Below, piece after piece: positions 9,584-59,614 of a stretch of 64,000 bases of DNA. A program made the translations under genes and the position numbers. The stretch spans positions 177,382,001 through 177,446,000 of the forward strand of contig OZ024742.1 of the NCBI GenBank assembly GCA_964016885.1, given 5' to 3'. The notes beneath the pieces were generated by a model, which did not search any database, was not told the origin of the DNA, and saw only the letters and a list, made by a program, of their open reading frames with translations. The first letter of the stretch is position 1; the number at the start of each line of letters is the position of its first letter. This stretch comes from Eledone cirrhosa. Lineage: Eukaryota.

Positions 9584-9772
9584 ATAGGAACCAGTAAGAC
9601 CCCGACAGCTGAGCTCAAGCCGTTTCGACGGCTAATTCTGGATTAGCCGTCGAAACGGCTTGAGCTCAGCTGTCGGGGTCTTACTGGTTCCTATTACCCA
9701 CTCTACTACCTCAAGTATTGAGTACTTTGGTGCGTTATGGTCCACCTGGTTCCTTACCACATTTCCTTTGTT
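9584..9772 (+). mobile_element. HHR-bearing PLE-like 3' terminus (family A) with a perfect fold-back, between (TA)n arrays
   Basis: 53-bp perfect inverted repeat 9584-9694 with a 5-nt loop; stem II-GAAA(9652-9655)-stem III-GTC(9672-9674); the tail 9695-9772 is homologous to the reverse complement of 59173-59245. Confidence 0.75.
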
Positions 9773-10539
9773 ATATATATATATATATATATATATATAT
9801 ATATATATATATATATATATATAATCCTGAAGTCTGAGTTTGTCATAACTCTTTTTTCAGTTGTGGGCATCTCGCCATGCTAGGACTTTACTATTAAATA
9901 ATCTTAATCTAAGCTGACACTGTTATATGAGGTAGCATCTTTCATCACTGTATACAGCCTTACCTTTTCATATAAACCAGGTATCTATCTAATCATACTG
10001 TTTCCGTTGATGTAACTTGCTCCCTTTGAACGTGATGGTTCTGTACCACGTTACCTTTGTCTTACCTGAGAAGAATATCCTTCATTTATTGTCTTGCCAT
10101 GTAATGCCTCTGCATGTGCTTGGTTTATTGGTTATGGTGTTTTACACCCGAACGAAAGGTCATGGCTTATATCCCTACTGCCATGTTTGAACTTTTAGAT
10201 AAAAACGTTCTCTTCTGTTTCTCCTGACCTCGCAGGTTCAACAAATCGTGTTTTATTTGTTATTCAAAGAGCTAATCGTGTTGCACGCCGTTTTACAACT
10301 CTTATTCTTTATCTGTCTTATCACATATGCACAATGGATGTAGAGACAGATTGCTGAGCTAGACAAATGCGTCATTTGGACTATATTGAATTGCCTACAG
10401 TCCGCCAAGAAGACGTCTGAGGGGAAAACCCCGAACAATATGCAGAACTGTTTGGTCAGGATTCTCACAGTCACTTGCTGGGCTGTCTTTCATTTTCCAT
10501 AGATGCAGATGATGTGCGGGTCCGATTAAGGGACACTCA

Positions 10540-11380
10540 TTACTTTCTATGAATATCAAAACCGGTTGGTTTAGATGTGCAGCATCTACCGTTTTGCATC
10601 AGCCAACAAAAGTAACAGTTAATGCAATTGCATTACGCCTACCACTCAACTCCAATTCACGCCAAGAAGTCCGTAAGAGCACCCCACTTGTCGACCTTAC
10701 ACCGCAAATGAAAAAGATACTAGCATTTCATTCACCAAAGCAATCAAAGCTGCAAGAATTTATGGCATCTATCCTGCATTCCTTAAGAACCTTGGTCCAA
10801 ATACCCGAGACTAGTTGGCTTCTTTCCTAACAATCACTTCCTGATTTGGAGTTATCCCGAAGAACTGTGGAGAGGGCAAGGTCATTCCCATCCTGAAACC
10901 CGGGAAACCTGCAGACCATCCCACAAGCTACCAGCCAATCTCTATCGTCCTACTCTTACAAGCAATTTGAACGGCTCCTCTCAGTTAGGCTTGTCCCTTT
11001 AGTAGAACCAAGACTGTCTAAGGAGTAAGCAGACTTCCAACTACAAAGGAGTTGCACTGGCCAAGTCCAGGCACTTACTACCTTCATTGAGGCTGGCTAT
11101 CAACGTTGTCACAAGACAGGAACTGATCTGATTGACCTCTCTTCTGCATCTCATATTATATGGAGACGCGAACATCTTCTAAAGGCCTCAACCGTGAATA
11201 TCCTTGCCTCCATAATACTCACTAACAAAAGATTCAGAGTGTCACTAGGAGGTCAGACAAGTTCAACCACATCCTGATTGATGGCCTTCCCAAGGTTCCA
11301 TCCTGGCCCCAATAGTATTTAACATCTTCGTGAATGTTATGGCCCGGACAACTTCAAGGAAATTTGCATACACTGAATCT
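10540..11380 (+). pseudogene. Decayed non-LTR retrotransposon RT, Ingi/Vingi-like
   Basis: Hand translation: LKPGKPADHPTSYQPIS, SYKQFERLL, RSCTGQVQALTTFIEAG, IDLSSA, GLP/QGSILAP, FNIF, RKFAY; many frameshifts. Confidence 0.75.
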
Positions 11381-12171
11381 CCCTGAGACCTGCAATAAGT
11401 GACCATCTATTTGAGAAAGATTATTGCACATTAATTCCATTGGTTTTGTAGATCATACAGCCTGAACAACACTATCTGTCAAATGCTTAATGAGTATATT
11501 TAAAAATGTATCAGTCATTTAAATCTAGATGAATACATCTTAGAACATCGTTTTTCAATTACGTTGAAAAGCTGGAAAACTGATATGAGATTTTAGACGT
11601 TTATATACTAATGTGATATCTGCTCTAGTTATATAGCTTGAATATTTGGAGACCACATTTTGAGGGAAAGACATGAGTGATTTTGCATTACAGTTATTCG
11701 TTCTAATATCAAGCTGTAGGATTTTGTAAACATATTGGATGAATAGTGTGAGGGAAGTGAATCATAATGAGGTTATTTTACTAATTATTCTGAACTGAGT
11801 GTGACCGAAGTGTGTAAAGAGTTTGTGATATCATGATGAACAAACTAAAAGTCTGCGAAGGGGATATGAAGGCTAGGTAGAAATAAGGCAGACATCACAA
11901 TTTATAATTTTGTTTGCCCATACAGTCGAACTACAGTAACATTAAAAAGGTGAAATAAAGTAAGCAAACACTGAGTTTACAGAGCCAAGTTAGTTCCTTT
12001 CTCTGTTAAGCTGACAGTGTAATACCTTTACGGACATCGTGTTTTTACTGTCGTCTGTTAAACTGTTACTGTAATATAAGCATTCTATCGAAGTCACATT
12101 CTGCCTAAAATATCTTAGAATAATTTGTAACATGAGGCCGTGAATAACAACCCCTGAAAGCAAAGGGTTTT

Positions 12172-12265
12172 AGATAGATATACAGGCAGATAGATAGTGA
12201 GATAAATAGATAAATAGATAGATAGATAGATAGATAGATAGATAGATAGATAGATAGATAGATGG
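12172..12265. repeat. (GATA)n microsatellite
   Basis: Direct reading; abuts the 3' end of Tx1-like element 1. Confidence 0.95.
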
Positions 12266-58428: not shown

Positions 58429-58640
58429 CGCGGGGCTTAGTAGTTAGATTTCCGGGGGCTCATTGTGTCCTTGAGCAAGACAATGTTTATCATGTTGCTC
58501 TAGTCTATTCAGCTGGAGGAAATGAGTTGCGATGAGACTGGTATGAATAGGCAACTGTTATTCGTCCCCAAATAAATATTGCCTAGGCTTCAACTTCAGA
58601 AGAGATATTTCCAGGCACTCACCCATGGCTGCTCAAGATC
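58429..58640 (+). mobile_element. Decayed S2 CORE-like SINE
   Basis: ggcttagtagttag..tgtgtccttgagcaagaca..gaaatgagtt. Confidence 0.65.
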
Positions 58641-59172
58641 GAAGGGAACATTTATTATCCGGTTAAATAAACATTGAATTCAAGTAAGTTCTGAAAAAAA
58701 TATAGCATATTTTTAATTTTATGATTTATCATTTCATACGGTTGAGTCACAATTTACGAAGTGCGAACCTATAGCATTCTATAAAAAAAAGTGAACCTAA
58801 GGCAAGCTTCTACATGAACAAACGAATTGCTGGAACTAGTTGTGAAATCTCCCTCAATAGGAATATAATATTGTATAAAGACCTACATTCTTTTAGATGT
58901 ACCTTGTTCTGTTTAAGTAGAAAATAGGAAGCTGGGATGGATATCACAATTCAAATTTATAGGTAAAATATTATTCTATTGTATAGCAATTTCTTATAAA
59001 TTGAGATATAAAATATACATGTGTGAGTGTGAGCACGCGTGCATATATATATATATATATATATAATTTGATATATATTTATCCTTATCGAGCCCTCTTT
59101 GGATTTTAGTCTTCAAATTTTTTATTATTATTACTATATATATATATATATATATATATATATATATATATA

Positions 59173-59342
59173 TAACGAAGGAAGTGTGGACCATAACGCA
59201 CCAGAGTACTCAATACTTAAGGTAGTAGAGTGGGTAATAGGAAAAGACTTAAGACCCCGACGGCAGAGCTCGAGCCGTTTCGACGGCTATTTCTCGATTT
59301 AAATAGCCGTCAAAACGGCTCGAGCTCTGTCGTCGGGGTCTT
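59173..59342 (-). mobile_element. Family A HHR-bearing terminus with fold-back (second copy)
   Basis: Inverted repeat 59251-59342 centred on the stem II loop; minus strand GAAA cggc tcgagctct gccg TC ggggtc; tail homologous to 9695-9772. Confidence 0.75.
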
Positions 59343-59489
59343 GAACATTCATATATATATATAGAGAGAGAGACAGAGAGAGAGAGATAGATAGATAGTA
59401 GTAATAATAAATTTGAAGACTAAAATCCAAAGAGGGCTCGATGAGGATAAATATATATAAAATATATAAGAACCGTAGAACAAATATTT

Positions 59490-59614
59490 ATTAAAATAAC
59501 AGATTAAAATTTAAGCAAAGTATCGCTGCTTTCACCCTTAACGGGATCTTCTGAAGATCCCGTTAAGGGTGAAAGCAGCGATTCTTTGCTTAAACTTTAA
59601 TCTGTTATTTTAAT
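59490..59614. repeat. Palindrome centred on a hammerhead core (family B)
   Basis: 62-bp arms with 2 mismatches; axis at 59552 inside CTGAAGA (59551-59557); then t-ccc-gttaa-ggg-t GAAA. Confidence 0.8.

Follow-up and report, generated by a model that had tools for sequence, protein, structure and literature searches.

The closest described systems are the endonuclease-positive Penelope-like elements (EN+ PLEs). In the available parts of two accounts (PMC3846280, PMC8557442), their insertions carry a head-to-head inverted 5'-truncated copy, a one-armed tail, a palindrome at the junction, (TA)n targets and TATA/Inr motifs in the pseudo-LTR, and Arkhipova et al. (2013, PMC3846280) attribute the palindromes to self-priming on an antisense template. 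For the Anolis Poseidon PLE, the accessible text (Frangieh et al. 2024, PMC11167929) describes cutting of both strands of AT-rich targets, their extension in vitro by the purified PLE from two internal reverse transcriptase (RT) start sites that define the tail, a predicted dimer, and a hammerhead at the pLTR-ORF junction; the fate of the RNA 5' end is not addressed in that text. The published account of minimal hammerhead motifs, in the portion available, covers type I ribozymes with the U3:A8 variant and a short stem I, mainly in truncated copies; it notes opposite-strand pairs 100-700 bp apart and proposes circular RNA templates, and this portion holds no breakpoint analysis. Animal non-LTR retrozymes, in the part of the preprint available (bioRxiv 10.64898/2026.07.22.740005), consist of tandem non-coding hammerhead units.

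We analyzed a 64,000-nt stretch of Eledone cirrhosa DNA (the window) together with further copies of its hammerhead families, and found islands that share these traits of EN+ PLEs, of Poseidon and of the minimal hammerheads. Unlike in EN+ PLEs, the arms end at one sense-strand base plus a G and are not nested copies, and the tail measures ~80 nt rather than 30-40 nt. Nearly each insertion pairs one of each start site, whereas the Poseidon start site, in the text available, did not differ between strands in vitro. The CAGAAGA core of family B is not among the variants in the available portion of the hammerhead account. Family E shares tandem non-coding 483-bp hammerhead units with the retrozymes, but its arrays show the two-ended, inverted-arm signature of PLEs, which the available part of the preprint does not mention. 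The islands are probably abortive PLE insertions in which both (TA)n strands primed near the RNA 5' end and the cDNAs ran off the cap. The first-pass annotation knew of no earlier description of its candidate system; the anatomy of the palindromes is published and explained by self-priming, and a cap-end or strong-stop model for PLEs was not found in the literature searched, in which subscription papers and key PLE reviews are thinly covered.

Palindromic islands and their families

Palindromic islands are present far beyond chance. The four annotated at the outset, each with one long arm, one short arm and microsatellite flanks, were found at 9584-9694, 43695-43811, 59251-59342 and 59484-59620, and belong to three families: A (9584 and 59251), C (43696) and B (59490). 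Arm ends given by BLAST may be off by a few bases.

The palindrome at 9584-9694 has two identical 53-bp arms and a 5-nt centre. Its family A short arm (9584..9645, minus strand; ~+1 to +59) stops at the first fixed 3' site and adjoins (TA)n at 9560-9586, and the long arm (9642..9774, plus strand; +9 to +141) comprises the 3' half of the hammerhead and the tail, with GAAA at 9652 and a predicted cut after 9674, followed by (TA)n at 9772-9823. The other family A island joins a long arm (59175..59306, minus strand) to a short arm (59301..59352, plus strand) that is unlike it at 5 of 13 subfamily-block positions. The family C short arm (43696..43749, minus strand) starts at the CUGAUGA core; the long arm (43753..43865, plus strand) is old and internally deleted, and its core has decayed to CTGATTA. 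In family B, a long arm (59395..59555, minus strand; +4 to ~+162) meets a short arm (59549..59615, plus strand; +4 to ~+73) followed by (TA)n at 59613-59684, and a solo tail fragment (59060..59135, plus strand; +91 to the long-arm end) lies beside (TA)n at 59135-59174. The two family B arms are joined via a TTC/GAA microhomology that creates an apparent CTGAAGA core; the core annotated at 59551 is this junction chimera, and read-through family B copies have CAGAAGA.

Two solo arms complete the set: family D (28640..28755, minus strand), 5'-truncated at the CUGAUGA core, and family E (30540..30672, minus strand), a piece of the 483-bp tandem hammerhead repeat of non-LTR retrozyme type, truncated in stem II. 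A fifth palindrome of like build, overlooked in the first pass, belongs to family G (29436-29831). Its long arm (29436..29655, minus strand; +35 to ~+255) contains a complete minimal hammerhead, its short arm (29669..29831, plus strand; +7 to ~+170) a complete hammerhead with the core at 29732, and the centre lies upstream of the ribozyme.

Family copies were collected by exact patterns and not by DNA similarity search. Exact 22-23-mers gave 54,027 matches for family A, 32,948 for B and 31,535 for C (control matches, 0), and 12,408 family A palindromes have a centre of at most 30 nt. The loci analyzed are first-listed matches on contig 1, picked by exact 22-25-mers, a sample biased to young copies.

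The islands are PLE retro-insertions, as the first pass had proposed, and sit in (TA)n. An open frame of 768 aa at one locus (L055:4933-7239) carries YRDD and VIY-YIG motifs, read by eye, so that RT and GIY-YIG, the latter C-terminal, lie on a single ORF as in EN+ PLEs; a C-x-C-x5-C-x5-C linker is visible between them and might be the Cys-rich linker by which, along with RT phylogeny, the Neptune clade is recognized. In the nearest Atlas clusters, 18-90% of members have RVT_1, GIY-YIG and HTH_animal, and searches of this ORF against Pfam and PDB sequences returned no match. GIY-YIG-type C-termini also occur upstream of families B and G, and no ORF was found in families C and D. The L055 locus consists of an inverted arm, an upstream pLTR, the ORF, and a downstream pLTR stopping at the short site. 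Pseudo-LTRs formed by a partial tandem, an inverted 5'-truncated copy, a one-ended tail and a type I hammerhead motif in the pseudo-LTR are thus all present. Core, GAAA and stems I-III are found in read-through copies of families A, C, D, E and G, family B has a non-canonical core, and the family A sequence folds as a three-way junction; Rfam identified no hammerhead either in the window or in six read-through loci, giving only repeat-driven miRNA matches. (TA)n borders 170 of 185 family A arm ends, masking any target-site duplication. Family E consists, like the non-LTR retrozymes, of tandem non-coding units (spacing 483-485 bp, up to 10 units) with one type I hammerhead each.

Artefacts are known to take the form of perfect palindromes, and the arms at 9584 are identical. 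It is nevertheless extremely improbable that the islands arose by fold-back during assembly or library preparation, or that they form a MITE family with a fixed palindrome: within pairs the arms differ at 4.7% of sites, and two Illumina runs carrying the same species label contain, in their raw reads, joints between opposite strands at +1 (few read starts). Fixed-end MITEs are further contradicted by centres that vary between copies, by unequal arms, and by long ORF-bearing copies that share the same ends.

Breakpoints, the hammerhead and the extra G

Breakpoints along the families are strongly non-uniform and pile up at and just downstream of one base (+1). Comparing the break rate around +1 (+12 to -6) with that upstream (-7 to -440), we found a 63-fold excess in family A (74/94 arms), 25-fold in G (12/30), 22-fold in C (13/25, with six copies of one segmental repeat collapsed) and 6-fold in B (12/30, with another 13/30 breaking upstream). 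The +1 base lies in loop II in family A, at the first stem I base in B and C, and 69 nt upstream of the core in G. Besides A, B and C, two families have their breakpoint cluster upstream of the hammerhead, at ~70 nt (clear) and ~130 nt (noisy).

The first-pass annotation held that uncleaved RNA, folded into the hammerhead, makes the RT stall and then either stop or snap back, the fold rather than the cleavage site setting the breakpoint. In families A, B and C the hotspot does lie within hammerhead sequence, 3 of 23 family E breakpoints cluster with the window copy within a few nucleotides in the stem II insert, and the main template in vitro, in the text available, is unprocessed RNA (PMC11167929). 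However, the breakpoint tracks +1 wherever the ribozyme sits. In family G the hammerhead is crossed at the background rate (2 breaks per 1,394 arm-nucleotides, against 12 per 420 around +1). By an eye count, used because TA runs confound automatic calls in this old family, 27 of 30 family D loci extend upstream of the hammerhead and 3 break within it; in family E, arrays of 9-10 units were copied repeatedly through the hammerhead, and 5 of 23 breakpoints (hand count) fall in the 84-nt hammerhead of the 483-nt unit, against ~4 expected. The two solo arms of the window thus break inside the hammerhead, as annotated, but are not typical of families D and E. The folds are weak (z -0.25 in A, +0.07 in B, +0.30 in C); stalling would be expected where the RT enters stems, not in loop II or past the core, and does not predict the extra G described below. 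A stall at the ribozyme is therefore very unlikely to set the breakpoint; the cleavage site does not set it either, as the first pass held. The annotated axis on the stem II loop of family A holds insofar as it falls in the 30-nt loop II of the parent, but what looks like stem II is formed by the palindrome; the family A islands lack the parent's 5' stem II strand and its core (UUGANAA, a U3:A8 variant), which lies 44 nt upstream of +1.

Two other origins of the hotspot were rejected. Run-off at the ribozyme cut does not fit, since no family B arm starts at +47 and only three family A arms start at +39 to +43; a local template switch within the hammerhead quasi-palindrome is contradicted by short arms that run to a fixed site beyond stem I.

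The base before +1 is G in 56 (B), 43 (A), 76 (C) and 45 (G) of the first 100 non-parental matches per family. At the control position one base further 5' in family B, G occurs in 20/100 (p 1e-7). In the fetched loci, 36 of the 56 ends at +1 have a preceding G, compared with 27 of the 123 that fall at +2 to +20. The G stands on one arm or on both; every one of the 51 G cases fetched from the four family searches is a junction, none a read-through copy, and no constant leader precedes the G. In L106/L107 and L121 both arms end in G around a 1-nt centre, and such double-G junctions recur in 5 pairs among the first 100 family C rows, scored from coordinates only. Family A ends spread from -6 to +12, and the base C is as frequent there before +1 as G (47/100), for which a TCAGT subfamily (3/30 loci) accounts only in part. 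The extra G in families C and G was forecast in advance and then found.

A cap-derived extra G is known from the 5' ends of full-length LINE copies. The +1 base has an initiator/TATA context. TATA-like boxes lie at -29 to -33 in families A and C (TATAAATA at -30 in C); no clear TATA box was seen in families B and G. From this sequence evidence, the palindrome centres likely mark the capped RNA start and not a ribozyme stall, and the central position of the ribozyme in families A, B and C would reflect no more than a start site within or next to it. In the full-length copy L055, +1 is at 4849 and the first ATG at +233, which places both RT start sites near the RNA 5' end. In RAD runs, depth changes 25-30-fold near +1; this step was not taken as evidence, since ~7,000 molecules stop at 1498, where an AATT is taken to be the enzyme site, and since the reference diverges from other subfamilies upstream, which applies also to a similar step in contig runs.

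That +1 is instead a processed RNA 5' end (a splice acceptor, a trans-spliced leader or a nuclease cut) is very unlikely. In families A, B and C, +1 is an A that belongs to a YAG, family B has an upstream pyrimidine tract, and the D. virilis Penelope intron ends at helix I (PMC4209133). The Penelope start site has been mapped in D. virilis. Yet the arms retain the AG and so stop 2 nt upstream of an acceptor cut, the G is preceded by no constant leader, family G has no AG there, and family C carries TATAAATA at -30.

Arm pairing and probable priming on both strands

Each family has two fixed 3' ends, and short and long arms each stop at one of them. Of 145 head-to-head pairs, in a set that includes loci selected for ending at +1, 141 combine a long with a short arm. 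The arms do not overlap in 24 of these 141 pairs; the short arm reaches further 5' in 39, the long arm in 30, and the two are level in 48. In 63 of 141 pairs (the 24 and the 39), therefore, copying of the long arm cannot have produced the short arm. Arms within a pair nearly always share a haplotype, with 17 mismatches at 364 diagnostic sites (4.7%) against 54% between insertions, and identical subfamily blocks in 41 of 65 cases against 11% between insertions. We had expected two RNAs from different subfamilies, which was dropped on this result in favour of one RNA or one source copy. Shared haplotypes are also predicted by self-copying.

Under self-priming as proposed for rotifer PLEs in the available part of PMC3846280, but placed at the cap, one cDNA reaches the RNA 5' end and primes on itself, so that the second arm copies the first. 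Besides the shared haplotypes, the 30 pairs in which the long arm reaches further and some junctions at which 3 nt could form a hairpin at the cap end (family B, TGA/TCA) agree with it. It cannot produce the 24 non-overlapping pairs or the 39 with a further-reaching short arm, which equally defeat the snap-back of a single cDNA invoked in the first pass, nor does it account for double-G junctions with a 1-nt centre, for a short-arm fixed end that stays unchanged whether or not the arms overlap, or for the pair S13296000, whose arms carry two different known haplotypes. Self-priming is thus excluded as a general mechanism, and we consider it unlikely to explain the islands.

In the run-off explanation that we favour, each of the two cut strands of a (TA)n target would serve as a primer for copying the element RNA from near its 5' end, and both cDNAs would run off the cap and then be joined head to head. 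The +1 base would be an RNA polymerase II start inside the pseudo-LTR; the extra G would come from copying the cap, often with an untemplated base after it; and the two fixed 3' ends would correspond to the pair of internal RT start sites by which the PLE tail is defined. Microhomology or end-joining with small trimming may unite the cDNAs, and a single RNA, or several RNAs from the same source copy, would usually give rise to both arms.

Long copies and the predicted ribozyme cut site

Minus-strand strong-stop DNA and transfer at the R region are features of LTR retroelements. [quoted passage not shown] It is possible, though somewhat short of an even chance, that PLEs replicate by such target-primed strong-stop synthesis on both strands, a jump to the ribozyme-cut RNA 3' end making the long copies. 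[quoted passage not shown] Cleavage there would make the stretch between +1 and the cut site (41 nt in A and 46 nt in B) a repeat resembling the R region of retroviruses, and the jump would regenerate the pseudo-LTR and give the ribozyme its role. Failed jumps would leave palindromes, and mis-registered jumps fossils such as L229 and L224.

The L229 locus contains a complete hammerhead stopping at the cut site, followed by a short A run, a G and then +1. For 5-6 of ten tandem jump events, the endpoint is the predicted hammerhead cut site or the base preceding it. A family B array of 21 units of 46 bp, each from +1 to the cut site, is suggestive only; it is a single event that slippage at a TTA microhomology could also explain.

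The tens of thousands of abortive products in this one genome amount to a natural run-off experiment, which yields a predicted start site per family, a strict rule of one site per strand, and rare jump fossils at the ribozyme cut site. It explains many short microsatellite palindromes that could be mistaken for MITEs or miRNA hairpins and, if true, marking of the RNA start would explain how PLEs are copied onto both DNA strands.

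Palindromic insertions and their elements

The four palindromes described in the first-pass annotation, which belong to Penelope-like element (PLE) families A (starting at window positions 9584 and 59251), B (59490) and C (43696), are present as stated, and each has unequal arms and microsatellite flanks. Family G supplies another long/short palindrome of the same build, the fifth, at 29436-29831. Each of its arms has a complete hammerhead and the junction lies upstream of both, and it is the key counter-example to a breakpoint set by the ribozyme. The window was located on contig 3 of the 3.0-Gb genome. 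In exact-motif searches, family A had 54,027 matches, B 32,948, C 31,535, G 15,714, E 1,209 and D 229, with 0 control matches in each case.

In family A alone, the palindromes whose centre is at most 30 nt long number 12,408. Their centres vary from copy to copy, which speaks against the alternative that they are fixed features of MITE-like families. An artefact was rejected, as the arms of one insertion differ at 4.7% of sites and opposite-strand joints at the same position are present in raw Illumina reads from two runs, albeit with few read starts. The observation holds: the palindromes are genomic events, each made independently, and they occur on a large scale.

The islands match the known anatomy of PLEs: inverted pseudo-LTRs (pLTRs), tails and junction palindromes are already published (PMC3846280 and PMC8557442), as are opposite-strand hammerhead pairs (PMC4209133) and a pLTR promoter (PMC2377424). 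The Atlas clusters nearest to the ORF of the full-length copy L055 contain RT and GIY-YIG families, and a Pfam search of this ORF gave no match; a C-terminus of the same kind lies upstream of families B and G. A second PLE type with Penelope/Poseidon-like RT motifs (714-aa open frame, L042:456-2597, minus strand) was observed beside a family A copy.

We numbered each family from the base where breaks pile up (+1). The 3' ends of every family are fixed at two sites some 80 nt apart, near +59 and +141 in A and near +73 and +162 in B. The segment between them is the PLE tail, a feature tied to two internal RT start sites in PMC11167929. In families A, B and C both fixed ends are TA-rich and merge into (TA)n of variable length (e.g., window 9560-9586 and 9772-9823).

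Minimal hammerhead motifs of type I are present in read-through copies. Rfam gave no hammerhead match in the window or in six loci with such copies. The family A core is a U3:A8 variant with a three-way junction in the predicted fold. The family B core is CAGAAGA, and the CTGAAGA at 59551 is a product of the junction. The hammerhead-like motif with CAGAAGA replacing CUGANGA is seen in copies of family B (e.g., L097:1470-1530), a family of ~33,000 matches.

Several other repeats were observed in the window. At 32675-32820, an almost perfect palindrome of 146 bp has a (TA)n run at its centre, with no visible hammerhead motif and no match among the first loci fetched; a related solo arm lies 2.3 kb away (30337-30397). 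Another element, present in three nested inverted copies (253-8648), has hammerhead motifs with CTGATGA at positions 1631, 5496 and 8561. The inverted repeat at 45041-46373 (~370 bp per arm, 92-96% complementary, 600-bp spacer) is possibly a head-to-head retroelement pair. The repeat that contains a further CTGATGA...GAAA hammerhead-like motif (34563-34601) has two relatives in the set of fetched loci.

Position and nature of the breakpoints

Break rates at +12 to -6 were compared with those at -7 to -440 in arms chosen by a motif downstream of +1. As the first-pass annotation expected, breakpoints are non-uniform: in first-listed matches on contig 1, a sample biased to young copies, the excess around +1 is 63-fold in family A (74/94 arms), 6-fold in B (12/30), 25-fold in G (12/30) and 22-fold in C (13/25, six copies of one segmental repeat being counted once). 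The same annotation proposed that RT stalls at the folded hammerhead, so that the fold sets the breakpoint. However, the position of +1 relative to the ribozyme varies by family: it falls in loop II in A (core at -44), on the first base of stem I in B (core +6) and C (core +7), and 69 nt upstream of the core in G (core +70). Only 2 breaks occur in 1,394 family G arm-nucleotides spanning the hammerhead, and 27 of 30 family D loci, counted by eye, reach upstream of it, with a noisy break cluster ~130 nt upstream. In family E, a 483-bp tandem repeat in arrays of up to 10 units, the hammerhead holds 5/23 breakpoints against ~4 expected (hand count). Therefore, the ribozyme fold does not set the breakpoint, and the stall mechanism is not supported. 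Family E (window 30540-30672; L238-L267) forms retrozyme-type hammerhead arrays with PLE-style short and long ends, inverted arms and scattered 5' breakpoints.

The +1 base lies in YA contexts (TTAGTC, TCAGTC, TTAGTT, CCAGAT, TCATAT). Upstream of it, family C has TATAAATA at -30 or -33 and family A has TATTTAAA or a similar sequence between -29 and -31; families B and G have no clear box there. The base before +1 was hand-counted in the first 100 listed genome matches with a non-parental base at this position. It is G in 56/100 for family B (of 2,734 matches), 43/100 for A (of 10,886), 76/100 for C (of 2,350) and 45/100 for G (of 4,262), the last two being out-of-sample predictions, versus 20/100 one base further 5' in family B (first 100 listed of 820; p 1e-7). 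A read-through subfamily was rejected as the source of the extra G, since the fetched G-bearing cases are junctions; these have no constant leader before the G, which is preceded by T in 35/51 cases. From LINE work, a cap that has been copied by RT is expected to leave an additional G at the 5' end of the retrocopy. These sequence features suggest that +1 is the transcription start. If so, with the first ATG of L055 located 232 nt after +1, both RT start sites would lie at most 141 nt from the RNA 5' end.

Origin of the two arms

In a set partly made of loci selected for ending at +1, 141 of 145 head-to-head pairs combine a long arm with a short one; in the remaining four, arms are deleted, cut or decayed. 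In published work, the palindromes are attributed to self-priming on an antisense template (PMC3846280). Snap-back copying of the long-arm cDNA cannot yield the 24 pairs whose long arm ends before reaching the start site of the short arm, nor the 39 whose short arm extends >3 nt further 5' (the long arm extends further in 30 pairs, and 48 are level); moreover, the short arm has no tail. In two junctions (L106/L107 and L121), as in five pairs by coordinates among the family C matches listed, both arms carry the G and are separated by a single base, which appears to leave too little room for a priming hairpin. For these reasons, the arms were likely primed separately, one per target strand.

Separate priming could have used a different RNA for each arm. 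This version is disfavoured by the subfamily haplotypes common to both arms (17/364 diagnostic mismatches vs 54% between insertions; identical blocks in 41/65 vs 11%), with one pair clearly discordant and a few others possibly so. The best fit is a single RNA that was copied twice or a pair of RNAs from the same source.

Possible ribozyme-dependent jumps and the proposed model

If an RNA begins at +1 and is cut by the complete downstream hammerhead at +41 (A) or +46 (B), it would have a terminal repeat, and the cDNA might jump to the ribozyme-cut 3' end. We consider such a jump possible but slightly doubtful, and it is the least supported part of the model. In family A, +1 directly follows the cut region in 11 matches (10 events). 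The end is precisely at +41 in five of these events, one of which is ambiguous, and at +40 in one more (p about 0.002-0.01 versus a uniform 13-nt window). In locus L229, a complete upstream hammerhead ends at the predicted cut site and is followed by a short run of A, a G and then +1; L224 resembles it. Family B has one 21-unit array of 46 bp, from +1 to the predicted cut site (L232:1470-2430; contig 27 near 5.647 Mb), that could also have originated by slippage. Fossils of this kind are rare, and a jump guided by homology would leave no trace; alternatively, long copies may derive from read-through transcripts or circular RNA. The L022 chimera (G000:C1 near 4.182 Mb) joins a B short arm ending at the predicted cut site, a small duplication and an A arm from +1 in the same direction, and resembles the product of a jump from an RNA of one family to an RNA of the other.

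A cap-end, one-site-per-strand or strong-stop PLE model was not found in the openly accessible main texts searched. We are fairly confident that the islands would be explained by cDNAs that run off the capped start of the RNA on each of the two target strands.
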